Assembly (NCBI GenBank): GCA_030141605.1
Contig: JAQGDQ010001919.1
Span: 1-21,137 of the forward strand
Direction: 5' to 3'
DNA from: Tubiluchus corallicola
Taxonomy: Eukaryota > Animalia > Priapulida
DNA length: 21,137 nucleotides
Of the stretch, positions 1,451-21,137 are shown in pieces; the first letter of the stretch is position 1; each line of letters opens with the position of its first letter. The notes below the pieces were generated by a model. It was not told the origin of the DNA. It ran no database searches and saw nothing but the letters and a program-made list of their open reading frames with translations. Both the position numbers and the translations under genes were made by a program.

Positions 1451-1599
1451 ATGACTATTGAGACGGATTTAGAAAACAACTACGAGTATACTCACGTTGC
1501 CCAGGTGGTCAACGTAGCGCCATCTGTAACGCTCGATCAGCTACAGACCTTATTTGGACATTTGGGTAAAGTAGAAGAGATCAAGATGTATCCAACTGA
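1451..1599 (+). CDS. SREK1: SREK1/SRSF11-family splicing factor, coding exon 1 (start of RRM1)
   Basis: ATG at 1451 follows a pyrimidine-tract acceptor (ttttttctttAG ending 1441, implying an upstream non-coding exon). Translates MTIETDLENNYEYTHVAQVVNVAPSVTLDQLQTLFGHLGKVEEIKMYPT, resembling SREK1/SRSF11 'IQVTN...EQMRTLF.FLG.IEELRLYP'. Donor GA|GTAAGT at 1600, phase 2. Not in the ORF track. Confidence 0.9.
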
Positions 1600-2065
1600 G
1601 TAAGTGTCTTGTAAAGTCTTATTAAAGTGGCATGAGATCCTGACGCGCACTCGACTCTTGTCATCCAACTGCTGTTGAATGAAGAAAATTTGTGCAGTTG
1701 AGTTATAAGTTATAAGTTTATTAATTTCCACTCTGCATCTTACAGTTATAATAAAAATACAGATAAGTTCACTGAAGTAAATATAAATATAAATGCAATA
1801 TTATCCAGAAATTACAAAAGAGATTCTTATGCAGCATATACATGTGCAAATTACATTCCAGAATAATTTTCATGCATACAGTTTGAGCCTAAAAGCATAG
1901 CCTGACAGGCCAAACTGTACGTGGAAATCTTAAAAAAGTAAATAATGATAATATATACATAGAAGTGGGGGTAGTGAATGAAAGATGAAATGGAGCGAGA
2001 ACTAATAAAAACTGTGATCATGATTATAAAGTTGCTCCTAATATAACTCTTCGGCTGGAGTTGTA

Positions 2066-2490
2066 CACTCACATCTCGGTTTGCCGGACCTCGCTTCTAC
2101 GGATGTCGGAAAAATCGGACAAAATCTGGACTGCTAAGAGTCTCGCATACTACGGACACAGTCCGTTGCTTCGCGAGCTGACCGCTAGTTGGCGGGCCGT
2201 CACTTTGTTTACATCCAAGCAGCGTGTAACGACACGTGTGCAGCTTGTTTGTCAGCGAGTTTAAGTAGTTTAATCCGCTTTTGTAAGCGTTATTTGAGTC
2301 ATTTGTCAACAGTATTTATATACTTTTGAATAGGAACAGCCCATACTTTTTGAGACAATTAGGCAATTGATTCTACATTGCCGTGAGTCTAACACTGTAC
2401 TGTATTGGCTTAGTATCGGTAAATACAGACATTCGGTATATTCGCACGGGCATCTCCCTGCTTTTTGTTCGGCAAACCGAGATATGAGTG
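2066..2490. mobile_element. TA-flanked MITE (Tc1/mariner-type target site), 425 bp
   Basis: 24-bp TIRs CACTCACATCTCGGTTTGCCGGAC / GTTCGGCAAACCGAGATATGAGTG (2 mismatches), with TA at 2064-2065 and 2491-2492. No coding capacity. Confidence 0.82.
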
Positions 2491-2905
2491 TAACTGTTAG
2501 AGTGTTTAAACGTATTAAGAATTTCCGTTCTTTTGAAAGCAGTTATTGTGTAACCTACTTTCTACTGAACTCACTATAAGAAAAAAATATCTAATCTTTT
2601 CCACCAACTAAGTTCTGTCTGCTTATGTATGGTATTAATGCGCTTGTATTAAAACACAATGGTGCTGTGAGCTTTTGCGAAATTTAGTAAGAAATACATA
2701 CGTTCGTATTCAAGACTCTACAGGGTAATTTTTTGTACTAGAAGATATAACATCTATGTATTATAGTATAGCATAGTATAACGTGTGGGTCACGTACCAG
2801 TAAGCGGTTGCCATAGTATGTGAAAGTTCCAATCATTTTCACAACAGACCATACTAAGATATGATTGTGAATGTGGCAATGTTTAGGTTACAGCTCTTGC
2901 TTTAA

Positions 2906-4204
2906 CTTTTTCAATACCATAACCATTTGCTGCATTTTGCATGGATTCATGAAGAACTGCTCTCACTAATCAGCAATTACATTTTATTTGATAATTAATC
3001 ATAAGTCATTTATTTCACATTACACATTTACAATAGTTTCATGTACAATATCTAGTGAAAGGGCCTACAATGAACATAATACAAATAGGAAATACTGCAC
3101 AGGAAAAGCCTCAAACACTGTTCACCTATACATGAAGGTAAATGTGTTGCGGGTAATCAAAAAGCAGGGCTTGTTAGATTGTCCCATGCAGTGAAAGAAA
3201 AAAAAGTAATGGAGATAATCTGAAAATTTAAAGTGAATCATGTGTATTGAAAAACAATAGTGCTTAAAATGGAATGATGTAATGAATGAAGCTCATATAT
3301 GGGATGATATAAAAGATAGAAAGACTATTATTTGTTGATAATATGCAAAATTAAGATAACTTGATTAAGCTAACACCACCGTTTTGCCGCCACTGCGAGG
3401 ACGGATAGTGATAGAAATTTTGATTACTCACTGATACTTACTTAAAATTTTATTTTTTAACATTTTTTTAAATCTAGTAATGGATCTGCGATTTTTTCCT
3501 GATTGACAAATCTCATTGCAGGCTTTTGGTCTTTGAAATATTATAAAATATATTATATACAAATATTATACAATTTTTATAGGTTTCTACTTCTCACACA
3601 ATGGATTTTCATGCTGAATTACATATGAAATGCAATTGCTTACCTTAGATAAATTAAAAATCGATTTTTGACTAAAAAATTGAAAAGGGTTTACAGCAAC
3701 TGCAGTGTTTGCACTGTAACAATGTACAGTATCACTTGTAATCAGCTAATGCAGAAAATGTCAACTATCCAGACACAACACTCTGATAAACTTTGGCCTC
3801 AAGTCTACTCTATTTTAAAGTAGAAATTCCTGTTAAGAGATGAAACAACCTTAATTTGTCCTTGTCTGATGAGCTGGTTTTTCCTGGAACTTTGTACAGT
3901 AGACAGTTCTCTTGTGCTGTAACAAGCAGGCGATCAATAATAGTGTGTACAATCACGCAAGTGTAAACCAGGCTAAGCTACTCAATAGGCTAAGTTGGAG
4001 TGACTGAAAAGGGTGTTTTTCTTAATTTTATCCAATTAAATCACTTATAAATGTTTAAACAAACAGCATGTTTGGATAGCCGAGATTCTCTTGAATAGAA
4101 CAGTACATAATTTGTAATCATTTAGTTATGTCTGTGCTCATACAGTAGCAGAAAAGTCACAAGTCTTATAAGACTTATTTTCAATGGTGCGGGTCCTGAA
4201 AGAG
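2906..4204 (-). mobile_element. TTAA-flanked non-autonomous DNA transposon (piggyBac-type MITE, ~0.72 kb), complete copy interrupted by a LINE fragment
   Basis: TTAA at 2902-2905 and 4205-4208 with degenerate TIRs (CTTTTTCAATACC / CTCTTTCAGGACC). Its reverse complement aligns by eye with 11361-11851 and 15808-16341. Confidence 0.82.
2997..3571 (-). mobile_element. 5'-truncated LINE (CR1/L2-like) 3' end nested in the TTAA MITE
   Basis: Interrupts the MITE alignment, with AATT on both sides (2993-2996, 3572-3575). The minus strand reads IIFQRPKACNEICQSGKNRRSITRFKKMLKNK, resembling the 'G.k.WN.l....S...FK..LK' ORF2 C-terminus, then a 3' UTR ending AATAAATGACTTATGATT. Confidence 0.62.
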
Positions 4205-4295
4205 TTAATAGTATTTGTTTAAAAATTGTTCTGATACTTTTTGATACAATTACATGTAAAGTTACGGATGTGCAAGTACAGTAAGATAGTATATG

Positions 4296-5260
4296 TCAAT
4301 CAATCAATCAATTTATTTCATTCCAGCAATACATATACAACACATCAACGTACAATATTATTGAAACAAAAAGAAACAGTACAGGTAAAAAAACGTTGAT
4401 GAAGTCAAATTAACCAAATAAAAGAGTTGCTGTATGACACCTTGAAAGCTTGGCTTGTTAAGGTGGCAAAAATGAGTGAATGAAAGAATGGTTACGGTTA
4501 GTAGACATGATGGAATGGAAAAAATAGTAAGATTAGGGATAGGAAGAAGGAAGGAAGGGGAGGATGAGTGAATGAAAGAATTGTTAGGGTTAGTAGACAT
4601 GATGGAATGTAAAAAATAGTAAGATTAGGGATAGGAAGAAGGAAGGGAGGGGAGGATGAGTGAATGAAAGAATGGTTAGGGTTAGTAGACATGATGGAAT
4701 GGAAAAAATAGTAAGATTAGGGATAGGAAGAAGGAAGGGAGGGGAGGATGAGTGAATGAAAGAATGATTAGGGTTAGTAGACATGATGGAATGGAAAAAA
4801 TAGTAATATTAGGGATAGGAAGAAGGAAGGGAAGGGGGATGAGTGAACGAAAGAATGGTTAGGGTTAGTAGACATGATGGAATGGAAAAAATAGTAATAT
4901 TAGGGATAGGAAGAAGGAAGGGAGGGAAGGATGAGTGAATGAAAGAGTGGTTAGGGTTAGTAGACATGATGGAATGTAAAAAATAGTAAGATTAGGGATA
5001 GGAAGAAGGAAAAGAGGAGAAGAAACGACCACAGTGTATGTTTAATTTACATAGAGCTATATTAAAATAGCATTATAATTGATTGGAGGCCATATATTGC
5101 GACTGCATTAGACATGGAACCATTAAACTTGTATTATAAGTATGAATCAAAAATGGTCCTTTTCAAATACTTTTTGAAACTATAAATAGTTTTGTGTATT
5201 TTTACTTGGGCACTTATTTTATTCCAGTTATTGGGGGCTGTGAATTTAATAAAGGCTAAT
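4296..5260 (-). mobile_element. 5'-truncated LINE (CR1/L2-like) 3' end with tandemly amplified 3' UTR
   Basis: The minus strand from about 5260 to 5134 reads LAFIKFTAPNNWNKISAQVKIHKTIYSFKKYLKRTIFDSYL* (WN...SFKK.LK ORF2 C-terminus). It ends AATAAA (4317-4312) followed by a (TTGA)4 microsatellite tail (4296-4311). Confidence 0.7.
4472..5011. repeat. 92-bp purine-rich tandem repeat, ~6 copies
   Basis: gtagacatga recurs at 4501, 4593, 4685, 4777 and onward. The unit contains GGTTAGGGTTAG and GGAAGAAGGAAGGGAGGGG. Confidence 0.95.
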
Positions 5261-5284
5261 GTTTACTTGTTTGTTTACTTTTAG

Positions 5285-5412
5285 TGATGGATCCGGAAAT
5301 CCTAAGATTGCTTTTGTAAAATTTGCGGAGAAGGAAACGGTCGGCATGGCTCAGCATTTGACCAACGTGGTGTTTATCGATCGAGCGCTGATCGTGCTGC
5401 CATTTTACGAGG
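5285..5412 (+). CDS. SREK1: SREK1/SRSF11-family splicing factor, coding exon 2 (RRM1 C-terminal half)
   Basis: Acceptor tttAG (5283-5284). Phase-2 join gives D-DGSGNPKIAFVKFAEKETVGMAQHLTNVVFIDRALIVLPFYE; 'AQHLTN.VFIDRALIV.P' is the family signature. Donor GT at 5413, phase 1. Confidence 0.93.
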
Positions 5413-5476
5413 GTATCGTATTAATATTTATTTATTTACTTATTTATTCATTCGTGAAATTTTGCTGCTGTATAAT

Positions 5477-5839
5477 TGTTGTGGAGATCGCTGACGTGAA
5501 GTAGAATTGCATAGAACATCGTAGAATGTTCCGTCGGAATGACCGCCTTACTGTCTGGATTGTCCTCGAACATTTGTTCCAGAAGTTTCTACAGCACTCT
5601 ATATAAGTCGAAGCAGGCTGCCGACACGTGATCGCACATCGCACACAGATCTAACACGGACTTGTACTTACGCATTTATACTTACTTAAACGTTTTCCAG
5701 ATTATCACGTTTAGTATAATCATTTCAACATTCCTTCATACTCCTGTGTTGTAGAATTCTCGCTTAATAAAGTAGTAATATTTAACGGCGTGTTTTCTGG
5801 TTTTCTCTACGAGCCTTCCGAGAGAAACAAAACACAACA
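5477..5839 (+). mobile_element. Solo LTR, 363 bp
   Basis: Termini TGTTGTG...CACAACA, perfect 5-bp target duplication ATAAT (5472-5476, 5840-5844), internal TATATAA (5600-5606) and AATAAA (5766-5771). Confidence 0.85.
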
Positions 5840-6911
5840 ATAATATGTACTCAAAGGTAACAATAATTAAGACATTCACACAGGTTATACAACATTATGC
5901 AGTAGAATACAACTTGGGTTGCCCAAAATTTTTTTCTGTCTAACCTCAAAAAAATTTTGTTTCCTCCCTCCCTGCTGTTGTCTTTTGAGCTCAGGAGGTA
6001 AGACAGAAACAAGTTTTTTTTAAGCTGGTCTTATCTTATTTGTGGGATGTCTCTTATTTTGCCAGAATCGTAGAATAATGTTTCAAGACTTTGATATTTA
6101 TGTAAACTTGTGTAAATTTGTGGGGGGGGGGGGGTAGATTGACGATATTAAAGAGAAATCAAAATGAAGAATGAAATTCCAAAATCTTAAACTAATCACC
6201 CTGGGGACAGCGCTAATTAGAAGTACTTAAAGAATTTTAAAGATTTTTGAATAAATTGATAAAATGATAAAAAAATTTACATGTATGCCTCAACTTTTCC
6301 ACCAAAGTAACAGGAATGACACATGAACACGGAGACACACATGAAATTAAGCAACACGAATATTTGCTAGTTCTGAAAGTATTTGGGAAGAGGATTTTCA
6401 CTTCTAGTGTGCTGTTTAGAATAAAATACTGCAAGTTAATTTTTAAATGGATACTTTCTGCCAAATCTAACATAATGGAAAAGTTGAAAATGGGCACTGG
6501 GGACACAGGAAAAACTTTCACAGGAACTGATTTCAGCCTCAGTAGAAATGTCCAAATCACTTTTCTGGCAACAAATACAACTGGAATAAATCTCTTTCTT
6601 TGGTGTCTACCAGTCATGAGACAGTATCGCACCAGAAACTTTGTTATTTAAAAAAATTATCCTGGGACAAAATTGTACGTTCTGTGTAGAATGACCCACA
6701 TAAGGAAAATGATGTTTAGAAATTTTAAGTTATTAACTATACGACTGAAGTAATTCGTTTGTATATTTTAATATTAGTGCTTTAATGAATGTAGAGAGTT
6801 TTGTACCTGTGCTTATAACTGTAGTAGTGGCGTGATTTGATCAAAAACTTATACTGATACCTCCGTCTGCTAAGATGGTCTTTCAACGTACGTCGCTTTT
6901 TTGTGTTGCAG

Positions 6912-7021
6912 ACAAAATACCAGAGGAAGTTGAAGCACTGAAGATCCTAGCGTCGTCACCTGGTTGTGGCGTGCCGAGCTTAAACCTGGCTTCAAAATGG
7001 CCGCCTAATGTTGTAAATCAG
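6912..7021 (+). CDS. SREK1: SREK1/SRSF11-family splicing factor, coding exon 3 (inter-RRM linker)
   Basis: Acceptor ttgcAG (6910-6911). Phase-1 join gives DKIPEEVEALKILASSPGCGVPSLNLASKWPPNVVNQ ('KIPEE..AL' as in SREK1). Donor CAG|GTACTG at 7022, phase 0. Confidence 0.87.
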
Positions 7022-7337
7022 GTACTGAGTTTTATACTTGTGTAAAATGATGTTGAAGTATTAATGATCTGTGTTTCTTTCTATGATGTAGCTCTCAACT
7101 AAAACTAGATTTTTCCTGCTGATTATCATACTTTTGCAGGGATGAGAATTTTCCATGGATACGCGAAATTCCGAGTTTTTGGAAGACCAGTGGGGCCATT
7201 TTTGTAAATCGTGTAAATTCGTTGAGAAAATTTTTAAGGACCCAGTACATTATTTCACCAAGTTGTCAATGCAGTTTTGTCATTATTAGTCATAACTTAG
7301 AAATGCTTTTTAATAGAAAAGTGACACTTGGCAAGCT

Positions 7338-7572
7338 GCAAGAGGGCCAAGTAAGCTAGTGCACCATCTTTGTTGATCTAGGGCTTGCTCAAATGACAGC
7401 CATTCAGGATGAGAAATCTATAAAAATTTTATTATTAACCGGTCCCCTCTTGCAAGAGGGCCCAGTAAGCAAGTGCAGCATCTTTGCTGATCTAGGGCTT
7501 GCTCAATTGATCTCTACCAGAGAAGACGACAGCCATTCAGGACGTGAAATCTATTATTAACCGGTCCCCTCT
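7338..7572. repeat. Two-copy tandem duplication (~115 bp) with self-complementary ends
   Basis: caagagggcc.agtaagc.agtgca.catctttg.tgatctagggcttgctcaa...attattaaccggtcccctctt occurs twice. Confidence 0.8.
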
Positions 7573-7585
7573 TTTACTTTTGCAG

Positions 7586-7741
7586 GTTCAAGGCGTCGGT
7601 CCCTCACAGATGATAATCACAATTGACCCCAAACTGTCAACTCTCAACTTACCGCCCTACCCACCCCTTCCAGCTGCGATAGACAGCAACAAACTTGAGG
7701 AAGTGAGAAGGACAGTATTCGTCGGTAATCTGAATCCAAAG
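7586..7741 (+). CDS. SREK1: SREK1/SRSF11-family splicing factor, coding exon 4 (linker and start of RRM2)
   Basis: Acceptor ttttgcAG (7584-7585). VQGVGPSQMIITIDPKLSTLNLPPYPPLPAAIDSNKLEEVRRTVFVGNLNPK matches the family 'P.PPL....D..K..EIRRTVYVGNL'. Donor AAG|GTAAAT, phase 0. Confidence 0.93.
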
Positions 7742-7892
7742 GTAAATGTAAATTGTTATAACATGTTGCAATCATTTTATTGTAAAACGTATACAATGTT
7801 CACCTCAATCACAAAATTGAACAAACAGTCATAAAGTTAGCAATATGATATTTAACAGTAGAAATTTTGCATCCTTTCTCAATGCTTCTCTA

Positions 7893-8208
7893 GATCAACT
7901 GAAACTTGCATGCCTGGGAGAATAAAGTTGTAATCACATGACCAGAAATTCAAGTTCCTATTGGAAGGTATACAATGTTCACAGAAGATGGTGGAATGCA
8001 GAATAACTGTATAACTTGTTTCGTTACCATAAAAATTCTCTCCACACACACAGTGGCATAAAAGCAACAAACAATTTATTGAGAAAACCTTGCACTCAAG
8101 AACATAACCTTTAACATTGCTGTCTTTTGATCAACTGAAACTTGCATGCCTGAGAGAATAAAGCTGTAATCACATGACCAGACATACAAGTTCCTATTGG
8201 AAGGTACA
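7893..8208. repeat. Dispersed direct duplication of ~80 bp (about 7893-7972 and 8129-8208)
   Basis: gatcaactgaaacttgcatgcctg.gagaataaag.tgtaatcacatgaccaga.at.caagttcctattggaaggta occurs twice. Confidence 0.8.
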
Positions 8209-8529
8209 TCACATTCATGCATACAGACCATAAATGGAAAGGTCACCTATACTCTACAGACTACTAGTTAAACCAAAATCAAAGTCTACTTGGCTTCTTT
8301 GATAGCAGAATAAAGATTATTTGTTTACAGAAAGCTGTGTTATAATGTTATAATTTTTCTCTATTTAAACTTGAATAAGAGAGTTAGAACCAGAATTAAA
8401 GCATGAAATTAACAACCTAATTACTCTGATTAATGAATATCTATAAAAGCAAAAGAAACAATATTTAGAAACAAAAATCAATCTCTGACAAACTTTGTAC
8501 AATTAGAGTAAAACAACGACTGTAGATGG

Positions 8530-8662
8530 CAGCATCGTGAGGTCAGTATCGTATCGTGAGGTTAGTATCGCGATATGTATCGTATCGTGATACGTGTCGT
8601 ATCGTGAGGTTAGTATCACGATATGTATCATATCATGACTTAGGTGTATCGTTACAGCCCTA
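8530..8662. mobile_element. hAT-type MITE terminus with subterminal (GTATC/ATCG) repeats
   Basis: Ends GTATCGTTACAGCCCTA (reverse complement TAGGGCTGTAACGATAC), preceded by clustered gtatcg/atcgtga repeats. No matching other end was found. Confidence 0.65.
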
Positions 8663-10330
8663 TGAACTATGAACTATGAATTTTATTTCACACATCAAAA
8701 ATACAATATCAAACGTATTAATAATCTTTAAATAAAATAATTTGAGTAGTGCGAGGTGAGTGTACGATCATACGGTCATTAACACACTCACCTTACTTGA
8801 ATGAAAAAATGATTATAATTATGCATGCTTCTGTAGATAACTTAATGTAAATAAGGATGAAGTAAATGATGTAATAATTTGAGTAGTGCGAGGTGAGTGT
8901 ACGACCATACGGTCATTAACACACTCACCTTACTTAAATGAAAAAATGATTATAGTTATGCATGCTTCTGTAGATAACTTAATGTAAATAAGGATGAAGT
9001 AAATGATGTAATAATTTGAGTAGTGCGAGGTGAGTGTACGACCATACGGTCATTAACACACTCACCTTACTTAAATGAAAAAATGATTATAGTTATGCAT
9101 GCTTCTGTAGATAACTTAATGTAAATAAGGATGAAGTAAATGATGTAATAATTTGAGTAGTGCGAGGTGAGTGTACGACCATACGGTCATTAACACACTC
9201 ACCTTACTTAAATGAAAAAATGATTATAGTTATGCATGCTTCTGTAGATAACTTAATGTAAATAAGGATGAAGTAAATGATGTAATAACTTGAGTAGTGC
9301 GAGGTGAGTGTACGACCATACGGTCATTAACACACTCACCTTACTTAAATGAAAAAATGATTATAGTTATGCATGCTGCTGTAGATAACTTAATGTAAAT
9401 AAGGATGAAGTAAATGATGTAATAACTTGAGTAGTGCGAGGTGAGTGTACGACCATACGGTCATTAACACACTCACCTTACTTAAATGAAAAAATGATTA
9501 AAATTATGCATGCTTCTGTAGATAACTTAATGTAAATAAGGATGAAGTAAATGATGTAATAACTTGAGTAGTGCGAGGTGAGTGTACGACCATACGGTCA
9601 TTAACACACTCACCTTACTTAGATGAAAAAATGATTATAGTTATGCATGCTTCTGTAGATAACTTAATGTAAATAAGGATGAAGTAAATGATGTAATAAT
9701 TTTAGTAGTGCAAGGTGAGTGTACGACCATACGGTCATTAACACACTCACCTTACTTAAATGAAAAAATGATTATAGTTATGCATGCTTCTGTAGATAAC
9801 TTAATGTAAATAAGGATGAAGTAAATGATGTAATAATTTGAGTAGTGCGAGGTGAGTGTACGACCATACGGTCATTAACACACTCACCTTACATAAATGA
9901 AAAAATGATTATAGTTATGCATGCTTCTGTAGATAACTTAATGTAAATAAGGATGAAGTAAATGATGTAATAATTTTAGTAGTGCGAGGTGAGTGTACGA
10001 CCATACGGTCATTAACACACTCACCTTACTTAAAGGAAAAAATGATTATAGTTATGCATGCTTCTGTAGATAACTTAATGTAAATAAGGATGAAGTAAAT
10101 GATGTAATAATAGCAATGGTATAACAGCAATAAACCTGAAAGTTGAGAAAGGAAAACATAATATGTAATTACGACTTTGAGTGAACCTTAAAGAGTGAAA
10201 AAGAATTTCAAATAGTTACGAATTTAAATTATCTAATTATCTGTCAATGTACCACTTACTTGTATTACAATGCACCATATTACTTATTTGTATATACAAT
10301 GATTTACATATACACATATATGTACCCAAA
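8663..10330 (-). mobile_element. Probable antisense LINE 3' end containing the 137-bp array
   Basis: (TATGAAC)n microsatellite tail at 8661-8680 next to a minus-strand AATAAA (8687-8682), with a stem-loop just upstream as in CR1/L2 3' UTRs. The right boundary is approximate and any coding remnant is badly decayed. Confidence 0.5.
8736..10110. repeat. 137-bp tandem repeat, 10 near-identical copies, each with a hairpin
   Basis: The unit recurs at 8744, 8881, 9018 ... 9977. Each has AGGTGAGTGT...ACACTCACCT enclosing GACC-ATAC-GGTC (GATC in the first copy). Confidence 0.96.
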
Positions 10331-11082
10331 TTTAAATGGGGGATTATTATTATTATAATTCTTTATTTAAAATTTAAAATTTGATGCATATACAAATATT
10401 TACATAATATACATTCAGTGACCGTCTATTTGCTGGGTATGGTTAAAAAACTTTGTAAATAAAATAGCTGTTATATTCGTAAGACTTTTAAATACCAATA
10501 AATCACGGATTTCGTATCTCGAAATAATATAAAAGAACAACTAAAATCAAATAGTCCAGTTTACACAAACGACCTGTATAATATAAAAGTGACAGATATA
10601 ACATAAAAATTCAATATTTTATACTAAAGTTTGTAAAAACAAATCACAAACTAACTCAGTGAAAGCATCTAGCAGGTTTTTGTCACGAGAGGTATAAATT
10701 TTACTAATGTTTTGAAATTGTAGGCTATTTGCGAGCACTAATCTTTAATTTTCGTCGACCAAAGTACAATTAAAAAGCAAATGTTCAACTGTTTGTGCTT
10801 CCTCTGAGCATATACAGGCATTTTCGTGTATGTATCCAATTTTAAAAAGAAAATCTTTAAAGTTACCTTGTCCTAGTAAAAAGTTACAAGATAGTTTTTC
10901 TAGCCTTCTGCTACCTGTGTGAAAAGGAAGGTCTAGTGGAGTTAAAAATACACTTTCAGGAAGAATAGATAATTCCTGGCATAAGTGGGGGAGAAGAGAT
11001 TAAATTTATATTTACAGCCCTACTTTATATGTATTGTAATTTTGCTTGTATGTTATAATCTGTAGTAAACTATTTTCCACAG

Positions 11083-11258
11083 GTTATGCCAAATGACGTG
11101 ATGAAATACTTCTCTAACATTGGTGAAGTGAAGTATTTACGAATGGCCGGTAGTGAGGACGCTTCCTGCAAATATGCTTACATAGAATTCACGGAGCAGA
11201 CAACCGTTCCCTTGGCTCTTCAGTATAACGGTGCCCTGTACAATGGATGGAGAATCAA
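11083..11258 (+). CDS. SREK1: SREK1/SRSF11-family splicing factor, coding exon 5 (RRM2); gene incomplete in window
   Basis: Acceptor ttccacAG (11081-11082). VMPNDVMKYFSNIGEVKYLRMAGSEDASCKYAYIEFTEQTTVPLALQYNGALYNGWRIK matches SREK1 'GEVKFVRMAGDE..P.RFAFVEF..Q.SVP.AL..NG'. Probable donor AA|GTACAG at 11259. The five exons splice in frame (719 nt). The expected 'HSNNAIVKP' and RS-domain exons were not found. Confidence 0.9.
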
Positions 11259-11360
11259 GTACAGCTTACGATTTCTTTTAAACCAGTTAAAAACAATTAT
11301 ACAGTAGCTGACATCTTGAACAAATGTGCAATGAAACCACATAATGTGAACGTCGCTTAA

Positions 11361-11851
11361 CTCCTGCAGAACCGCAAGGTTTAAAACAAGATTTTATAAG
11401 AACTATGACTTTTCTGCTACTGTTTGAGCACAGACATAACTAAATGATTACAAATTAGGTACTATTGTATTCAAGAGAAACTCGGCTATACAATCATGCT
11501 ATTTGTTTAAACATTTTTAAGTGATTTAGTTCAATAAAATTATGAAAAACGCGCCCTTGCGACATTGCAACTTAGTCCATTGAGTAGCTTAGTCTGGTGT
11601 ACACTTGCATGATCGTACACACTATTTTATTGATCGCCTGCTTGCTGTAGCCCAAGAGAACTGTCTGCTGTACAGAGTTCCAGGAAAAACCAACCGATCA
11701 GTCAAGGATAAATTAAGGTCGTCTCAAATTCCAACAGGAATTTCTGCTTAAAAATAGAATATACTTGAGGCCAAAGTATATCAGAGTGTTATGTCCGGAC
11801 AGTTGAAATTTTCTGCATAAGCCGATTTCGTACAAGTGATACTGTACATTG
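11361..11851 (+). mobile_element. Left part of the same TTAA MITE family (left TIR present, right end missing)
   Basis: TTAA 11357-11360 then CTCCTGCAGAACCGCAA. Collinear with the reverse complement of 3720-4204 (e.g. gacttttctgctactgt.tgagcacagacataactaaatgattacaaatta). Similarity stops at 11851, about 100 bp before the cGLR stop codon. Confidence 0.85.
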
Positions 11852-11947
11852 AGTTCCCAAATACAAATATTTGCTTGGAATTCGTGTAATACTTATTAAA
11901 ACATTGGATTTCTGATGACTAAATTTAACCAAATGACTAAAGCATTT

Positions 11948-14347
11948 CTAAGATGCACTTTGCTGTTTCTTATCACTTTCTTCTATCTCATCCCAAACGA
12001 TTTTTAAATCGAAATCAACTCTCACAATATCCGCCTCGTCCAATATTCCTTCCCCCTGAGTTAGTACATGTGTTTTTAACATAGCACGGTACTTTTCAAA
12101 ATCTGGTTCCATTAGACCTTTTTTTGATGGTATGGCGCCATCAGTTAATTTCTTTTCTATAGCACGTGCTGCGTCTTCTGCCAATGTTAACAATGGAATG
12201 CCACTCATTTCTTTATGTTTTAGATCTTCTAAGATATTAACATCATTTAGCAGTGGGTGAAACATTGTGCCTTCTCGGCAACAGTCCCCAATGTACTGGA
12301 ATATAGAGACAGCTCGAGCTTTCAAGTTTTCTGTGCCCCAGTCATCTTCAGTGGTCACCACTTCATGCAAGAAGGCCACTTTTAACATGTAAGAGTCAAT
12401 GACCTTATCTGGTTGATACTTTATTGCTCCGTATAATTCTGGCAAGTTGACATCTAAAATGACCAAACTGGTGTGGTATGCTAAAGCATCAGGATTGGGA
12501 TATAAATGTATTTCTTTGTTGCAAGAATACAGGACAGGCTTTACTAGCACCTTTATGAGGATCAACACCATCTTATGGTTGCTGTCTAAGTTCTTTATAA
12601 ATTCACATTCAGCAACAGCAAATGTGGGTTCAACTTTTGTTTTTGATTCATCTGGTTTGAGCACGTAGTGATAACTGTTGACCTCTGGCCATTTATCATT
12701 GGCATTCTTTGGTACTCCCTCTTCTTCAGCACATGGTGTCACATCTACAGAGACTGCTATTTTTTTGTTTGGCAACAGAACACGTAATTTCAAACATGTA
12801 CAGACTTTATTCCATTCCACTACATGTGGAAAGCTGTTTGGCACAATTTTCTCTTTAAATTCCTCTTCTTGCAAAGCTGTCGCCACGGCTCTGCACAGGG
12901 ATTGGGAAAACATCTCCTTTAATTTTCCTAAATCTGCTGTGAAATCTCCGTGCAGTTGTACCACAACAAAAAAATCAAACTCATCTGGCTGGCCAATCTT
13001 TACTCCACAAGCCGAACTGCCAACAAGTATGGGCACAAATCTTATACGATGATTTTTGTAAACAATTCTGCTAACAGCACCTAACAATTCCTTTATATTT
13101 TTTCTAATATAGTCAAATTCTTTTACATTTGAAATTGTTCCTAATTCAGGCTCGGAAACCAAGTCCTTTAGAGACAATCCACAAATGTTTTTTGACACTG
13201 TTTCATCATCCTCTTTGCCAGAAAGCTCTGAAGACACTTCTTGCCACCTTTGAAAGTACTGATAGGAAAAAAAAAGTCCTGCAATTCGTTTGTAATTTCT
13301 GTTCAGTGCCTTTTCGTAAGCTCGTCGGATGCATATATCATAAACCGTTTCATGAGACTCATTTAACATTTCGGTCTGAACTCCTATATCAATGAGGTAT
13401 TTAACAACGTCTACACTTTGAGGTGACAAGTGAGCATCTTGACAAGCCAGATGAATTAGACTTCCTCCATTGTAAAGTTTATTTACTATCTGCCTCACTA
13501 TTTCGCCTGATTGCCTCTCTAGCATAGTTTCATATATTAATTTAACAACATCCAGTCTACCTTCTATACATGCTATGCAAAGTGGGGTCCAACCATGATT
13601 ATTTTCTGCCAGAATGTCAGAGCCCGCAAAAATCAGAAGTGCTGCACAATGAACATGTCCTTGCATTGCTGCCAAATGCAGAGCGGTATCACCTGTTGGC
13701 TCCAGGTAGAAGACATTTGCACCTTTGAGAAGCAGCAAAACAAGGGTTCCAAAGTGCCCTTTAAATGCTGCAGCATGGAGGGGTGAATCACCATCAACTG
13801 AAATGTAAGGTTCAATTTTGGCGCCATATTTAATTAACAGCTTCACTACTTCAGTGTGGCCTTCCCATGACGCAAGCTGTATAGGTCGTATTTTACACTT
13901 TTCTGGGAAGCCATCAACTTCTGCTCCGTGAACCAACAGCATTTCACAAATTTCTGTATGTCCCGCTCTAGCTGCTAATATTAAAGGCGACAATCCATTC
14001 CTTCTAGAAAGACAGTTTATGTCAGCACCCCGTTCAATGAGTTGCTGTGCAAGAAAAGTATGTCCCAAATGACATGCAGTTTCAAGGGGGGTTACTTCTG
14101 TATAACCTAGACTTGAAAGTTTTATAGTGAATCGTGATAGACTTTCCATTTCTGCTCCTCTGTTGAGAAGTTCATGAACAAGCTCATGCATGTTAAACCA
14201 CGTTGCAGTATCTAGCAGCTTGTTGAGCAACTCTGTTCCATCCACATCAAGTATAACAGCAAATTGGTAACCAATTAGTAACTTCTCGAGTACCAATTTT
14301 TGTTCGGCGTCTGACACGCTGTCAATAAGTACCTTGATTCTTTCCAT
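11948..14347 (-). CDS. Ankyrin-repeat / Mab-21 (cGAS-like receptor, cGLR) nucleotidyltransferase fusion protein, 799 aa, single coding exon
   Basis: Uninterrupted ORF with good Kozak context (GATATGG) and an in-frame stop 15 nt upstream. Ankyrin motifs TPLETAC, SPLILAA, RPIQLAS, SPLHAAA, TALHLAA, TPLCIAC, SLIHLAC (about aa 85-345). NTase motif LVG443S444-x11-E456FD458 plus third acid VSVD535V. Mab-21 C-lobe motifs TFAVAE, S652YMLKVAFLH, W...L, DC....MFHPL..VNIL. Confidence 0.92.
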   Translation of the reverse strand: MERIKVLIDSVSDAEQKLVLEKLLIGYQFAVILDVDGTELLNKLLDTATWFNMHELVHELLNRGAEMESLSRFTIKLSSLGYTEVTPLETACHLGHTFLAQQLIERGADINCLSRRNGLSPLILAARAGHTEICEMLLVHGAEVDGFPEKCKIRPIQLASWEGHTEVVKLLIKYGAKIEPYISVDGDSPLHAAAFKGHFGTLVLLLLKGANVFYLEPTGDTALHLAAMQGHVHCAALLIFAGSDILAENNHGWTPLCIACIEGRLDVVKLIYETMLERQSGEIVRQIVNKLYNGGSLIHLACQDAHLSPQSVDVVKYLIDIGVQTEMLNESHETVYDICIRRAYEKALNRNYKRIAGLFFSYQYFQRWQEVSSELSGKEDDETVSKNICGLSLKDLVSEPELGTISNVKEFDYIRKNIKELLGAVSRIVYKNHRIRFVPILVGSSACGVKIGQPDEFDFFVVVQLHGDFTADLGKLKEMFSQSLCRAVATALQEEEFKEKIVPNSFPHVVEWNKVCTCLKLRVLLPNKKIAVSVDVTPCAEEEGVPKNANDKWPEVNSYHYVLKPDESKTKVEPTFAVAECEFIKNLDSNHKMVLILIKVLVKPVLYSCNKEIHLYPNPDALAYHTSLVILDVNLPELYGAIKYQPDKVIDSYMLKVAFLHEVVTTEDDWGTENLKARAVSIFQYIGDCCREGTMFHPLLNDVNILEDLKHKEMSGIPLLTLAEDAARAIEKKLTDGAIPSKKGLMEPDFEKYRAMLKTHVLTQGEGILDEADIVRVDFDLKIVWDEIEESDKKQQSAS

Positions 14348-14732
14348 ATCAACAATGAGTCAAAAACACTTCTCGCTGTAATCTTTTAGTCAGGTAGCAG
14401 AAAAACCAAAGTGGCTAATTTATATTGTGTATCAAAAATATCATACAAACAGCATACAAAATGGTCTTATGCTTTATTTTATTTTCAAGCACGTAAACTT
14501 TTACCAGATAGTAGAACGTTCTAGCGAATAATAATTCCACAAGGTGTGATAGTAAAATTTGTGCGTATTGTACCTTTGTACCTTAATCACAGCAAACTGT
14601 TGACCAAAAAACGTACAACTTATCTTGGCAAATAAGACGCAATTTGTCTAAGCGCTGTTATCAGATGTAAATAGGGAAACATGGCGTCTTGGAGAAATTG
14701 TTGCTGTATATTTAATTCTAAACGTGGACTCT

Positions 14733-15575
14733 TGATACAGTCTTTTAGGTTCATTTTGTTTGTTTATTGGTGGCCATTACATATTTTCAAGGCTTGTTAA
14801 TGTAGTTGTACTCAAAATGAAAATATAATTATTATGGAGCTAGCAATAATTATATATGTACAAGAAAAATATACCCAGTCTATAGGTTGCTGTGACGTCA
14901 GTCTGGAATATAAGAACTACTGAGCAGCATTGCAACCCCTTTTAATATAGTTGACTTTGTATTCTAGTATGATTTTGTGTATATCCTATACTTAGGTTGC
15001 ATTAATAGCTTAATTTAGCTAATTACTTATGTTAATTGAATGAGTCATTAGTTAATTACTCATTAAACGAATTTATCTACTACAATAAAGCAAGTAGTGA
15101 CTGTACATATATGAGCCCGCACCTAGTTAGCTCTGGGAAGGGTCCCACCTCGTACCTGTCCTAGATCTCCTTTACAAGAAAGTAAGTGATTGGTCATACG
15201 CTCAACTGAACAGGCTGTCTGGCCAATAAATCGTCGTGTTAAAGGACAAGGTCATCCAGTTTTACGTGTTCGAGAAATTGAAACCAGGTTCAACCCAGTG
15301 TGTCAAACGTGCTAAGCCAGTGAAGTCATCGAATATGGCTTCCGACGAACATTTATTAATAATCGAAGTCAAGACTTAATTACTGTGGCGACAGAAAGTG
15401 ATTAAAGGGCACTGACACACCAAAGGGTTAGGTGTTCGAGCCGTGAGGCGGAAACACCAATAAACTGGCTATTATTCGTTATTTTACGTACTGCTGTAAA
15501 CGGAAATTCAGGAGATCTGATGCAGAAACAACCAGGCGATGACCAGACGTTGTATCAATGGTAGTTCCACGAGCT
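14733..15575 (+). mobile_element. Possible 5' LTR plus degenerate primer-binding site, hosting the nested solo LTR
   Basis: TGATACA (14733) ... TGTATCA (15557), with AATAAA near 15459. It is followed by A-TGGTAGTTCCACGAG, which resembles the complement of a tRNA-Gln 3' end (TGGAGGTTCCACCGAG). No target duplication and no internal ORF. Confidence 0.38.
14857..15107 (+). mobile_element. Probable solo LTR, 251 bp
   Basis: Termini TGTACA...TGTACA, 4-bp TATA on both sides (14853-14856, 15108-15111), TATAAG near 14908 and AATAAA at 15084-15089. The target duplication is low-complexity. Confidence 0.55.
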
Positions 15576-15807
15576 CCACAGGTCAGGACTCCACTGCACT
15601 CCACTAGGATTGGAGTACTTTACCACTTACGACTCCGGTACACCTGACAAGCATTGTAGAAGTGGCCACATAAGTTTCCGCCCCCTGCTCGAACTTTGGA
15701 AGAGTAACTGCTCAAGATTCCACGAAGTTCGCATAACCGTTTAGTCATGTTATTCCAGCTTCCAGAGTGATGGAGAACGTCAAATGTTGGAATCCGACAG
15801 TGTCCGA

Positions 15808-16341
15808 CTTTTCAGGCACTCCAACTTAGCCTATTGAGTAGCTTAGCCTGGTGTACACTTGCGTGATCGTACACATTATTTTATTCATTGCCTGCTTGCT
15901 AGAGCCTAAGCTGTTTCACTGTTCTACTGCTATTCCAGAAAAAAACAACTCGGCAGCCAAGAAGAAATTAAGGTCGTTTCATCTTTTAATGAGAATTTCG
16001 CCTTAAAACTAGAGTAGAGTTGAGACCAAAGTTTATCAGAGTGTTGTGTCTGGACAGTTGAAATTTTCTGCATTAGTCAATTTCACACAAGTGATACTAT
16101 ACATTGTTACAGTGCAAACACTGCAGTTGCTGCAAGCCCTTTGCAATTTATTCATCAAAAATCGATTTTTAATTTGTCTAGCGTAAGCAAATGAATTTCA
16201 TTTATAATTTTGCATGAAAATCCATTGTGTGAGGAGTAGAAACCTACAAAAATGATCAAATGTAACGTAATCGCTGCTTAGTGAGAGCAGTTTTTCATGA
16301 ACCCGTGCAAAATGCAGCAAACATTTACGGTCCTGAAGGAG
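15808..16341 (+). mobile_element. Right part of the same TTAA MITE family (right TIR present, left end missing)
   Basis: Begins cttttcaggcactccaacttagcctattgagtagc (reverse complement of about 3975-4011) and ends TTACGGTCCTGAAGGAG followed by TTAA at 16342-16345. The TIR matches the 11361 TIR at 14/17 positions. Confidence 0.85.
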
Positions 16342-16812
16342 TTAATGCCCAAATTTTCAGCAAAACAAAATATCTGTATTTACACAGACCTGTGCATATT
16401 ATTGCACTCATCAAACTACTATCGTTTTTGCAGTTTCCAAGCGGCTAAACTAAATTTATTATCATTTTTAAGCAAGTTACTTATTTGAGTGTTTCTACAG
16501 AAAGGCCGGCCAAAAGAAATTTGGTTCCGTCTTACCTCGTGAGCACAAAACATGTCAGTAGGGAGGGAGAAGAATTTTTTTCAAGGCTTTGTGTATATTT
16601 AAAGCTGGACCGTGTTATGTTTAAATTCACTTTAAATCAAAGTTTGTTTATTTCCCACTGGTTAGCAGTAATGTTTTAAATTTTTTCAATGCACATTTCT
16701 TCACTCTTTGTCTTTTAGTTTCGCATTGCTAAATTATCGCATAATTATCGATTATTGTATAGTCTCTTGTTTGTATGATGAAACGTGTATGATCTGGTAA
16801 TAATGGTATAAG

Positions 16813-17855
16813 TGGCAACACTACTCGGCTGTTAATACACCGATTTGGTGGAAAATTCAACACTTTTTTACCTCCAGTATAATGAGAATCATACAAAATG
16901 GCAACACTACTCGGCTGCTAATACACTGATTTGGTGGAAAATTCAACACTTTTTAGCCTCCAGTATCATGAGAATCATACAAAATGGCAACACTACTCGG
17001 CTGTTAATACACTGATTTGGTGGAAAATTCAACACTTTTTTACCTCCAGTATCATGAGAATCATACAAAATGGCAACACTACTCGGCTGTTAATACACTG
17101 ATTTGGTGGAAAATTCAACACTTTTTTACCTCCAGTATCATGAGAATCATGCAAAATGGCAACACTACTCGGCTGTTAATACACTGATTTGGTGGAAAAT
17201 TCAACACTTTTTAGCCTCCAGTATCATGAGAATCATGCAAAATGGCAACACTACTCGGCTGTTAATACACTGATTTGGTGGAAAATTCAACACTTTTTTA
17301 CCTCCAGTATCATGAGAATCATGCAAAATGGCAACACTACTCGGTTGCTAATACACTGATTTGGTGGAAAATTCAACACTTTTTAGCCTCCAGTATCATG
17401 AGAATCATGCAAAATGGCAACACTACTCGGCTGTTAATACACTGATTTGGTGGAAAATTCAACACTTTTTTACCTCCAGTATCATGAGAATCATACAAAA
17501 TGGCAACACTACTCGGCTGTTAATACACTGATTTGGTGGAAAATTCAACACTTTTTTACCTCCAGTATCATGAGAATCATGCAAAATGGCAACACTACTC
17601 GGCTGTTAATACACTGATTTGGTGGAAAATTCAACACTTTTTAGCCTCCAGTATCATGAGAATCATGCAAAATGGCAACACTACTCGGCTGTTAATACAC
17701 TGATTTGGTGGAAAATTCAACACTTTTTTACCTCCAGTATCATGAGAATCATGCAAAGTGGCAACACTACTCGGCTGGTAATACACTGATTTGGTGGAAA
17801 ATTCAACACTTTTTAGCCTCCGATACAATGAACGTCATACAAAATGGCAACCCTG
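16813..17855. repeat. 86-bp tandem repeat, 12 copies, with 5-unit higher-order structure
   Basis: tggcaac recurs at 16813, 16899, 16985 ... 17759; the array ends in TGGCAACCCTG (17845-17855). Confidence 0.95.
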
Positions 17856-18130
17856 GCCGAGAGTTAGCCGCAAAAAAACATGGCCGCGCCCTGCGTTCAT
17901 GATGTTATAACGACGAAATAATGATGTTATGATAATTATTGCGTTTTATGTTTTAAATTAAAAAATACGCTTTTATATGACTGAGTCAAGCAAGTATATG
18001 ATTATACGAAAAATATATATATAATTTCCACCGTGTGCGCGATAAAAATGTATTACTTAGGCGATTAGACGGAAACACAGGTATTTTTATTGTCTGCCAA
18101 AAGTAAAAGTGTGTATTTTATGCATCGTGT

Positions 18131-21100
18131 CTTATGCTACGCTTGTGTTTCATTTGCTACGCTTGTGTTTCTTTTGCTACGCTTGTGTTTCTTTTGCTAC
18201 GCTTGTGTTTCTTTTGCTACGCTTGTGTTTCTTATGCTGCGCTTGTGTTTCTTTTGCTACGCTTGTGTTTCTTTTGCTACGCTTGTGTTTCTTATGCTAC
18301 GCTTGTGTTTCTTATGCTACGCTTGTGTTTTTATGCTAAGCCTGTGTTTCTTATGCTACACTTGTGTTTCTTTTGCTACGCTTGTGTTTCTTATGCTACA
18401 CTTGTGTTTCTTATGCTACGCTTGTGTTTCTTATGCTACGCTTGTGTTTCTTATGCTACGCTTGTGTTTCTTTTGCTACGCTTGTGTTTCTTATGCTACG
18501 CTTGTGTTTCTTTTGCTACGCTTGTGTTTCTTATGCTACGCTTGTGTTTCTTATGCTACGCTTGTGTTTCTTATGCTACGCTTGTGTTTCTTATGCTACG
18601 CTCGTGTTTCTTATGCTACGCTTGAGTTTCTTATGCTATGCTTGTGTTTCTTTTGCTACGCTTGTGTTTCTTATGCTACGCTTGTGTTTCTTATGCTACA
18701 CTTGTGTTTCTTTTGCTACGCTTGTGTTTCTTTTGCTACGCTTGTGTTTCTTATGCTACGCTTGTGTTTCTTATGCTACGCTTGTGTTTCTTATGCTACG
18801 CGTGTGTTTTTTTTATGCTGCACTTGTGTTTCTTATGCTGCACTTGTGTTTTTTATGCTACACTTGTGTTTTTTATGCTACACTTGTGTTTCTTATGCTA
18901 CACTTGTGTTTCTTTTGCTACGCTTGTGTTTCTTATGCTACGCTTGTGTTTCTTATGCTACACTTGTGTTTCTTATGCTACGCTTGTGTTTCTTATGCTA
19001 CGCTTGTGTTTCTTATTGCTACACTTGTGTTTCTTATGCTACACTTGTGTTTCTTTTGCTACGCTTGTGTTTCTTATGCTACGCTTGTGTTTCTTATGCT
19101 ACACTTGTGTTTCTTTTGCTACGCTTGTGTTTCTTATGCTGCACTTGTGTTTCTTATGCTACACTTGTGTTTCTTATGCTACACTTGTGTTTCTTATGCT
19201 ACGCTTGTGTTTCTTATGCTACGCTTGTGTTTCTTATGCTACACTTGTGTTTCTTATGCTACGCTTGTGTTTCTTATGCTACGCTTGTGTTTCTTATGCT
19301 ACGCTTGTGTTTCTTATGCTACGCTTGTGTTTCTTATGCTACGCTTGTGTTTCTTATGCTACGCTTGTGTTTCTTATGCTACGCTTGTGTTTCTTATGCT
19401 ACACTTGTGTTTCTTATGCTAAGCTTGTGTTTCTTATGCTACGCTTGTGTTTCTTATGCTACGCTTGTGTTTCTTATGCTACGCTTGTGTTTCTTATGCT
19501 ACGCTTGTGTTTCTTATGCTACCTTTGTGTTTTTTATGCTACGCTTGTGTTTCTTATGCTACGCTTGTGTTTCTTATGCTACACTTGTGTTTCTTATGCT
19601 ACGCTTGTGTTTCTTATGCTACGCTTGTGTTTTTATGCTACACTTGTGTTTCTTATGCTACACTTGTGTTTCTTATGCTACGCTTGTGTTTCTTATGCTA
19701 CGCTTGTGTTTCTTATGCTGCACTTGTGTTTTTATGCTACACTTGTGTTTCTTATGCTGCACTTGTGTTTTTTATGCTGCACTTGTGTTTCTTATGCTAC
19801 ACTAGTGTTTTTATGCTACACTTGTGTTTCTTATGCTACGCTTGTGTTTTTTATGCTACGCTTGTGTTTTTTATGCTATGCTTGTGTTTTTTATGCTACG
19901 CTTGTGTTTTTTACGCTACACTTGTGTTTTTTATGCTACACTTGTGTTTCTTATGCTACGCTTGTGTTTTTTATGCTACGCTTGTGTTTTTTATGCTACG
20001 CTTGTGTTTCTTATGCTACGCTTGTGTTTCTTATGCTACGCGTGTGTTTTTTTTATGCTGCACTTGTGTTTTTTATGCTGCACTTGTGTTTTTTATGCTA
20101 CACTTGTGTTTTTTATGCTACACTTGTGTTTCTTATGCTACGCTTGTGTTTCTTTTGCTACGCTTGTGTTTCTTATGCTACGCTTGTGTTTCTTATGCTA
20201 CGCTTGTGTTTCTTATGCTACACTTGTGTTTCTTATGCTACGCTTGTGTTTCTTATGCTACACTTGTGTTTTTTATGCTACACTTGTGTTTCTTATGCTA
20301 CGCTTGTGTTTCTTATGCTACGCTTGTGTTTCTTATGCTACGCTTGTGTTTCTTATGCTACACTTGTGTTTCTTATGCTAAGCTTGTGTTTCTTATGCTA
20401 CGCTTGTGTTTCTTATGCTACGCTTGTGTTTCTTATGCTGCGCTTGTGTTTCTTATGCTGCGCCTGTGTTTTTTATGCTGCGCTTGTGTTTTTTATACAC
20501 TTGTGTTTCTTATGCTACGCTTGTGTTTCTTATGCTACGCTTGTGTTTCTTATGCTACGCGTGTGTTTTTTTTATGCTGCACTTGTGTTTTTTATGCTGC
20601 ACTTGTGTTTTTTATGCTACACTTGTGTTTTTATGCTACACTTATGTTTCTTATGCTACACTTGTGTTTCTTATGCTGCACTTGTGTTTCTTATGCTACA
20701 TTTGTGTTCCTTGTGCTACGCTTGTGTTTTTTATGCTACACTTCTGTTTTTTATGCTACACTTGTGTTTCTTATGCTACACTTGTGTTTCTTATGCTACG
20801 CTTGTGTTTCTTATGCTACGCTTGTGTTTCTTATGCTACACTTGTGTTTCTTATGCTACACTTGTGTTTTTACGCTACACTTGTGTTTTTTATGCTTCAC
20901 TTGTGTTTCTCATGCTACGCTTGTGTTTCTTATGCTACGCTTGTGTTTCTTATGCTACGCTTGTGTTTCTTATGCTACGCTTGTGTTTCTTATGCTACAC
21001 TTGTGTTTCTTATGCTACACTTGTGTTTTTTATGCTACACTTGTGTTTCTTATGCTACACTTGTGTTTCTTATGCTACGCTTGTGTTTCTTATGCTACGC

Positions 21101-21137
21101 TTGTGTTTCTTATGCTACACTTGTGTTTCTTATGCTA
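18131..21137. repeat. 20-bp satellite, ~150 copies, runs off the window end
   Basis: Unit CTTATGCTACGCTTGTGTTT with minor variants (acac/acgc, ttat/tttt, 19-bp deletion units). Confidence 0.98.

Follow-up and report, generated by a model that had tools for sequence, protein, structure and literature searches.

A TTAA-bracketed, Pack-TIR-like unit with an intact gene of a young, probable ANK-cGLR family in Tubiluchus corallicola

In a 21,137-nt stretch of DNA of the priapulid Tubiluchus corallicola (contig JAQGDQ010001919.1 of assembly GCA_030141605.1; this whole stretch is called the window), a 4,989-bp unit at 11357–16345 was found in which two pieces of a miniature inverted-repeat transposable element (MITE) enclose a gene that likely encodes an ankyrin-bearing (ANK) cGAS-like receptor (cGLR). 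The unit is a large Pack-TIR-like structure with an intact gene of a young ANK-cGLR family inside it, which places it above a chance bracket and below a proven mobile cassette. As described in the passages of Tan et al. 2021 (PMC8277862), animal Pack-TIRs contain 100–5000 bp of non-transposon sequence between the terminal parts of one terminal inverted repeat (TIR) element. The unit is similar in this respect: 3956 bp of cargo lie between the MITE pieces, both termini are present, and each part has at least 10 terminal bases. Both ANK-cGLRs and piggyBac-type Pack-TIRs have been described before; it is rare for the cargo to be the complete gene of an immune enzyme. The evidence came from the letters of the window, protein searches, public DNA contigs and papers. 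Contigs of four of the six listed public runs (X1, X2, X3 and X4, from two samples) were aligned to 10150–16750, with 32 pieces (of 22,807) and 15 joints (of 180) listed, and a finer alignment of X1 and X3 contigs was made over 11200–11499. The features are collected in Table 1.

The initial annotation of the window had described an inverted pair of TTAA ends around the gene, and this pair proved to be real. TTAA is present at 11357–11360 and 16342–16345, and of the 17 bases adjoining each TTAA on the inside, 14 match as an inverted pair. An 18-base pattern of TTAA plus TIR, with at most two mismatches, had three matches in the window (11357 on the + strand, 16345 and 4208 on the − strand), compared with 0 in 100 shuffles. 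According to passages of PMC5381638 and PMC2872659, piggyBac/TTAA MITEs have a TTAA target-site duplication (TSD) and a TIR of 12–19 bp, both of which are present in the unit. The first six TIR bases of piggyBac are given in these sources as C[CAT][CAT][TGA][TAG][TGA]; the TIR of the unit (CTCCTT) agreed at five of the six positions, and the two ends of a third, cargo-free MITE copy in the window (CTCTTT and CTTTTT) agreed at all six. The element is very high-copy and non-coding, as are MITEs of this type. No ORF (open reading frame) of 80 aa was found in the pieces, three copies lie within 21 kb, and the summed depth in X1 was 1003–1562 times the single-copy level. At the right TTAA (16345), contigs exited into unrelated flanks (59 in X1, 51 in X2 and 14 in X4). 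No autonomous piggyBac partner was found: all 14 metagenome matches to the TIR pattern were chance matches, with nothing alike beyond the pattern.

The left MITE piece aligned with the third copy at 84% identity (11357–11851 versus 4208–3720). The right piece aligned with it in two blocks, 15808–16253 versus 4011–3573 (84%) and 16251–16348 versus 2996–2899 (82%). Some 577 bp at 2997–3572 occur in the third copy and are absent from the right piece, which indicates a longer subtype or a nested insertion. The cargo-free copy had been taken to define the element; because contigs crossing 16252 (X2 record 15 and X1 record 7) indicated a short form of ~735 bp as the general one elsewhere, the third copy alone does not do so. 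When the cargo and the duplicated part were subtracted from the unit, exactly a 735-bp element remained. At 11394–11471, contigs stepping back 38–60 bases with short spacers suggested that tandem or nested short variants of the MITE left region exist elsewhere in the genome.

It was also correctly noted earlier that a stretch of MITE is present on both sides in diverged form; it measures ~290 bp (11568–11851 and 15822–16106, 80% identity). The left piece duplicates the start of the right piece from ~11554 on, and from 11719 it is common to the gene paralogs. Over 289 ungapped columns of the overlap, a three-way count was star-like, with 22 private changes in the left piece, 31 in the right piece and 13 in the third copy. 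Neither of the two pieces was nearer to the other than it was to the third copy, and their longest identical run was 22 bp. The star-like count implies that the pieces are separate MITE lineages, or stem from a duplication of the same age as the family. The direct repeats in their present state (80% identity, longest exact run of 22 bp) were judged unfit for excising or integrating a 4254-bp circle, and this reading was rejected. Of the anatomy given in the initial annotation, the MITE pieces and the intact ANK-cGLR ORF stood, and the "1.4 kb upstream DNA" was resolved into ~610 bp of gene flank and an ~850-bp repeat resembling a long terminal repeat (LTR).

The 2.4-kb ORF is intact, with no stop. 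Six ankyrin repeat cores were located at aa ~85–275 of the product, and the catalytic motif residues are G443-S444, E456, D458 and D535. This arrangement has the G[S/G] loop and the [DE]h[DE] X50–90 [DE] triad of cGLRs, with 76 residues between the second and third acids, and the same catalytic residues are carried by a relative, P0002. Under the strict activation-loop rule h[QT]GS, the protein deviates at V442, which replaces Q/T; V is also found in P0002. The looser G[S/G] rule is the one used for cGLR selection in the methods of Li et al. 2023 (PMC9980059). Pfam detected the ankyrin repeats and a Mab-21_C domain with 31.4 bits (cut-off 24.1), and the Mab-21 nucleotidyltransferase domain scored below the cut-off (E value of 0.094). 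The sole PDB match of a three-sequence profile (the 799-aa protein, P0002 and P0003) was 8gjy, cGAS-like receptor 1, with an E value of 0.028; the match consisted of three colinear stretches over the GS loop, the third acid and the helix bundle, and was weak for the core. A single-sequence phmmer search of the catalytic part against the PDB gave 0 matches. Structural homology of an AlphaFold2 model to cGAS/CD-NTases and the synthesis of a cyclic dinucleotide are further marks of cGLRs in Li et al. (PMC9980059). In both predicted models of the protein, the predicted local distance difference test (pLDDT) was below 50 over the catalytic domain, and fold searches returned ankyrins or noise only.

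Protein searches yielded just two relatives, P0002 (800 aa, 48% identical) and P0003 (146 aa, 60% identical), and none was found in metagenome and viral scans. A 50%-cluster search with the full-length alignment was dominated by ankyrin proteins, and 149 of the 150 best stretches fell in the ankyrin part. Four matches scored weakly against a profile of the catalytic domain, one of which has a Pfam Mab-21 domain. Judged from these sequence features, the ORF product is likely an ankyrin-bearing cGAS-like immune enzyme. Its catalytic part is acidic, with an isoelectric point (pI) of 5.7, and resembles in this the cGLRs of the non-nucleic-acid type; nucleic-acid-sensing cGLRs have a pI above 8.5 in the passages of Li et al. 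(PMC9980059). The predicted function is that of a cyclic-dinucleotide synthase: the ankyrin repeats would bind a non-nucleic-acid ligand, to which the acidic catalytic domain would react. In the 96-bp 3′ flank of the gene, neither AATAAA/ATTAAA nor poly(A) was found, and the only downstream AATAAA lies inside the MITE piece, at 11631.

The gene was found to be multicopy. Relative to the host-flank depths of 163.7 and 148.1, which served as the single-copy reference in X1, the summed X1 depth was 16–37-fold over the ORF and 19–20-fold over the 5′ flank, with the aligner's own warning that contig depth is not copy number. Because summed depth is inflated by contig overlap, single contigs were regarded as the better guide to copy level. 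In these, the ORF reached a depth of 1910 in X1 (9.8–12.9 times single-copy), 64.6 over 422 bp with 12 differences in X2 (12-fold), and 42.5–76.1 in X3, where single-copy depth is low at 2–5.6 (at least 7.6-fold). These values suggest a family of roughly ten near-identical copies (97–98% identical). The 5′ flank was multicopy to at least ~14920, where some contigs fork. One X3 contig (record 18) spans 11719–11987 at a depth of 46.7 with 5 differences, covering the last 133 letters of the MITE piece and the next 136. As it crosses from the left MITE piece into the 3′ end of the gene at multicopy depth, the left inner junction is common to several copies. The earlier expectation that paralogs share MITE ends and junctions was thus borne out at the left inner junction (~98%) and failed at the left outer end, which is single-copy in X1. 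In the right piece, the form near that of the window had a depth of 225.8 at 15856–15983, i.e. near single-copy, which is a weak indication as haplotype-level contigs of 128–170 bp were also found in the ORF.

The left terminus behaved differently from the interior. Its X1 depth over 11340–11379 was 194.9, the sum of two haplotype contigs (90.6 + 104.3), versus 163.7 in the flank. Both X1 haplotypes cross the left TTAA, and X3 has no cover there. This single-copy depth in X1 means that the left terminus is private and not common to the paralogs. It differs from the majority MITE end, which forms the loose end of 48 X1 contigs, in 10 of 31 columns, two of them TIR bases, and it was single-copy in X1 at 88% likeness. 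Both host flanks of the unit were single-copy as well. A bare-TTAA empty allele, which the initial annotation had proposed to look for, was absent from X1, the sole run covering the left junction; a plain cargo-free MITE allele may be present at the site in X1. Joints skipping ~4.1–4.8 kb were rejected as empty alleles, because any plain MITE copy gives such joints. At the right edge, one X1 contig (depth of 148.1) enters the element by 30 letters, one fewer than the bridging threshold asks for, which fits the presence of the unit on both X1 haplotypes and is no proof of it. Given the decayed left TIR and the presence on both X1 haplotypes, this copy of the unit is now probably immobile. Between 11301 and 11432, the X1 haplotypes differ at 9 of 132 sites, compared with an X1–window difference of ~1.5–2% in the flanks, indicating locally high polymorphism.

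We favour, with a probability of roughly 45%, an origin of the unit as a Pack-TIR through gap filling: a MITE that resided in the host gene and has since decayed would have copied a member of the ankyrin-cGLR family via MITE homology. The resident 735-bp MITE would have broken near element position 198, and its left arm would have invaded a MITE fragment already adjoining a member of the gene family. Repair would then have copied MITE positions ~198–490, the gene, its 5′ flank and the LTR-like piece, and the copied strand would have rejoined the right arm at MITE position 198. A single event of this kind would give a single TTAA pair, a ~290-bp direct repeat composed of two MITE lineages, an outer end that is private and an inner junction that is shared. 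Several observations weigh against this origin. The switch point predicted near 11554 was not seen, and the identity to the third copy (89% outside, 86% inside) was uninformative. An old jump of the whole unit with subsequent decay of its end is possible, as seven changes in 33 bases at 8–10% divergence have a P of ~0.01–0.04, and the high local divergence (9/132 between X1 haplotypes) points the same way. Contigs cross 14957 at a depth of 83.2 in X3 and of 496 in X1 (two contigs). If the LTR-like repeat does not begin further to the left, they suggest its presence in at least some of the paralogs as well, and this fits a larger shared unit too. Among the pieces listed, no contig bridges 15807/15808, and the right inner junction may be private or shared. 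The paralogs may be arranged in tandem or dispersed. Moreover, depth does not equal copy number, 32 of 22,807 pieces are listed, and the single-copy depth of X3 is low.

Mobility of the whole unit was considered less likely than gap filling, yet a serious rival to it. Two older MITEs around the gene would have formed a composite non-autonomous piggyBac-type transposon, the ~10 paralogs would be dispersed insertions with majority-type TIRs, and in the copy described here the left end would have decayed or the interior would later have been homogenised by gene conversion. The TTAA pair with outward TIRs does enclose the entire unit, the flanks are single-copy around a multicopy interior, and the left inner junction, and probably the LTR junction, is common to the paralogs. 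Majority-type left ends elsewhere would be hidden among the more than 1000-fold MITE depth, and multicopy whole-gene Pack-TIRs such as Ssk-FB4 exist (PMC8277862). Nevertheless, the left terminus is single-copy and deviates from the majority end in 10 of 31 columns when the interior differs from the paralogs by 2–3%; 7–9 private changes in 33 bases at 3–5% divergence have a P of 1e-3 to 4e-7. X1 contained no empty allele, and the metagenome TIR scan gave no autonomous partner. Copies of a transposed multicopy Pack-TIR share both ends and have their own TSDs; here the left terminus is single-copy and the right end is not diagnostic. The mobile-cassette proposal of the initial annotation retained a multicopy gene, a left inner junction common to the paralogs, a cargo within a TTAA/TIR bracket and single-copy flanks, and lost the shared left end and the bare-TTAA allele in X1.

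It is improbable that the locus is instead a donor, where gene and MITE pieces were joined long ago and the internal block was later copied to another place and multiplied through tandem or segmental duplication, with the TTAA ends uninvolved. Such a history agrees with the private left end and the single-copy flanks, the fork near 14920 means that paralogs need not share the right side, and recent clustered cGLR amplifications have been described in insects (PMC9980059). It leaves unexplained, however, how the gene entered the host gene, and why 290 bp of the MITE middle are duplicated with the inner ends reciprocally lost, in register at position 198. A resident nested gene standing alone beside two unrelated MITE insertions, whose inner ends were lost by chance, would suit the extreme abundance of the MITE (three copies in 21 kb; 1003–1562-fold) and the independent lineages of the two pieces. 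The gene and the MITE–gene junction are both multicopy (X3 record 18), which makes this history very improbable and largely refutes the two separate insertions that had been offered as a caveat.

Substitutions among the gene copies were examined in a biased subset of 40 of 421 rows. Of 23 substitutions in the ORF, 4 were synonymous and 19 were not (two of them in one codon), against a neutral expectation of 26% synonymous (P of 0.23 for 4 or fewer). Strong purifying selection was rejected (P of 3e-6 at a dN/dS of 0.2). The frame was intact, although ~3 stops are expected at 3% neutral divergence (P of 0.05). Four of the seven differences in ankyrin cores, two of those in one cluster, are at positions that we take to form the binding surface. 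Diversifying selection on the ankyrin-cGLR family may be regarded as a lead from these sequences, not as a result. The paralogs have 3-base insertions near aa 532 and 556. In some contig pieces, the gap count is not divisible by three, so that there may be broken gene copies as well.

Compared with described systems, the unit shows both likenesses and differences. In the passages of Tan et al. 2021 (PMC8277862), animal Pack-TIRs usually originate by gap filling without transposition, 4 of 281 unique cases are multicopy, and 8 of 370 listed cases are of piggyBac type. Typical cargo there is a 224-bp fragment, in contrast to a whole 2.4-kb ORF with flank in the unit; Pack-TIRs leave a small gap in the element, whereas the flanking MITE pieces of the unit overlap by ~290 bp. 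The Pack-TIR rule asks for a parent without transposon within 100 bp; the multicopy paralogs adjoin a MITE piece 96 bp from the stop codon, and a MITE-free parent may exist. Related copies that adjoin the element, as here, were excluded by the filter of Tan et al. (PMC8277862). Coding Pack-TIRs that hold a whole gene are rare in animals. The unit is reminiscent of Ssk-FB4 of Drosophila melanogaster, a near-whole host gene in a non-autonomous TIR element with several copies and enriched amino-acid-changing differences, which was called the first potentially functional whole-gene coding Pack-TIR in animals (PMC8277862). The copies of Ssk-FB4 share both ends and have distinct TSDs of 9–10 bp and empty alleles; in the unit the TSD is TTAA, the one end that could be assessed is private, and X1 showed no empty allele.

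As in the ankyrin-fused cGLRs of Li et al. 2023, the protein combines ankyrin repeats with a likely nucleotidyltransferase of the Mab21 fold that has a GS loop and an acidic triad, and the pI is acidic; relative to those catalogued, V replaces Q/T before GS and the protein is very divergent, P0002 and P0003 being the relatives found (PMC9980059). The string "transpos" has zero occurrences in the main text of that paper. In the literature searched, with most subscription papers outside its scope, no paper on a transposon-borne cGLR was found. KolobokP is likewise a TTAA-family DNA element with MITE-like direct repeats flanking an internal region and abundant solo units (passages of Kojima and Bao 2022, PMC9587614). 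Its termini are 5′-RR...YY-3′, its long terminal direct repeats are full and a transposase lies within, unlike in the unit, where the termini are 5′-CT...AG-3′, the repeats are partial and 80% alike and no transposase or nuclease lies inside; membership in Kolobok/KolobokP was thus rejected. The parallel with mobile CBASS drawn in the initial annotation is an analogy only, the unit being without an effector gene.

The LTR-like fragment, which we take to be part of an LTR retroelement from its anatomy, had a summed X1 depth of 205–360 times single-copy. It has a GC-richer leader and points away from the gene, ~610 bp from the start codon, and may serve some of the paralogs as promoter or enhancer. 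The segment 15613–15694 was rejected as cassette-specific, because its X3 depth of 133.7 is at the level of the LTR-like family. LTR-mediated retrotransduction of the gene was also rejected, the gene being upstream of and opposite to the LTR-like piece and without poly(A).

The exons of the host gene splice to 239 codons without a stop and contain RRM domains. We take this gene to be SREK1/SRSF11, a name that no search gave. The unit starts 98 bp past the last host donor site (11259), from which a likely intronic position was deduced; the next host exon downstream of the unit was not found in the window. The intron before the last host exon contains high-copy sequence at 10150–10982 (summed X1 depth of 17,000–95,000). 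Tandem arrays lie around and within the host gene at 497–1355 (26-bp unit), 4472–5011 (92 bp) and 8736–10111 (137 bp), and further ones at 16813–17851 (86 bp) and 18130–21137 (20 bp), the long ORFs in the last being artefacts. A second small dispersed repeat is present at 5948–6021 and, in opposite orientation and 77% alike, at 16512–16581. A 26-bp inverted pair (2064–2089 and 2467–2492, 92% complementary, 377 bp apart) is likely another small TIR element. Rfam and tRNA scans of the window were empty, and a bacterial promoter scan, irrelevant for animal DNA, was at chance level.

Table 1. Features of the unit and its surroundings in the window
Feature	Position	Strand	Evidence or remarks
Left TTAA target-site copy	11357–11360	.	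Sequence; bridged by two X1 haplotype contigs
Decayed left MITE terminus	11361–11393	+	Single-copy; 10/31 columns off majority end
Left MITE piece	11357–11851	+	Element positions 1 to ~490
Gene 3′ flank, 96 bp	11852–11947	−	Between ORF and left MITE piece
Intronless ORF, 799 aa (likely ANK-cGLR)	11948–14347	−	Six ankyrin repeat cores, nucleotidyltransferase motif, Mab-21_C helix bundle
Gene 5′ flank	14348–14957	−	Multicopy at ORF level in sample S1 (bins 14349–14790; X4 record 32, X3 record 22)
LTR-like high-copy fragment, ~850 bp	14958–15807	+	Starts with TG; ~428 bp; TGG resembling a primer site at 15386; leader truncated at right MITE piece; no ORF
Right MITE piece	15808–16345	+	Element position 198 to end; majority-type TIR; TTAA 16342–16345
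Third MITE copy, cargo-free	2902–4208	−	TTAA at both ends; ~577 bp longer than right piece implies
Host gene, five exons	1451–11258	+	1451–1599, 5285–5412, 6912–7021, 7586–7741, 11083–11258

Invertebrates have from tens to more than 200 cGLR genes, and the passages of Li et al. on cGLR expansions give no mechanism beyond gene amplification (PMC9980059). Here, a MITE piece is physically joined to a young family of ~10 copies, one of which is TTAA-bracketed inside a housekeeping gene, which makes transposon-mediated spread testable. We tentatively propose, as a possibility held at rather less than even odds, that the piggyBac-type MITE family (more than 1000 copies) is the vehicle that spreads an intact, diversifying ankyrin-cGLR gene to many dispersed sites, by jumps of the whole unit or by repeated MITE-to-MITE templated copying. 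If the paralogs are in tandem and the unit is a one-off, it is still a large intact Pack-TIR, and the young ANK-cGLR family is still useful for finding what acidic ankyrin-fused cGLRs sense. If the MITE is indeed the vehicle, the unit would be an animal example of a mobile immune cassette for second-messenger signalling and would provide a mechanism for the expansions of cGLRs in invertebrates.

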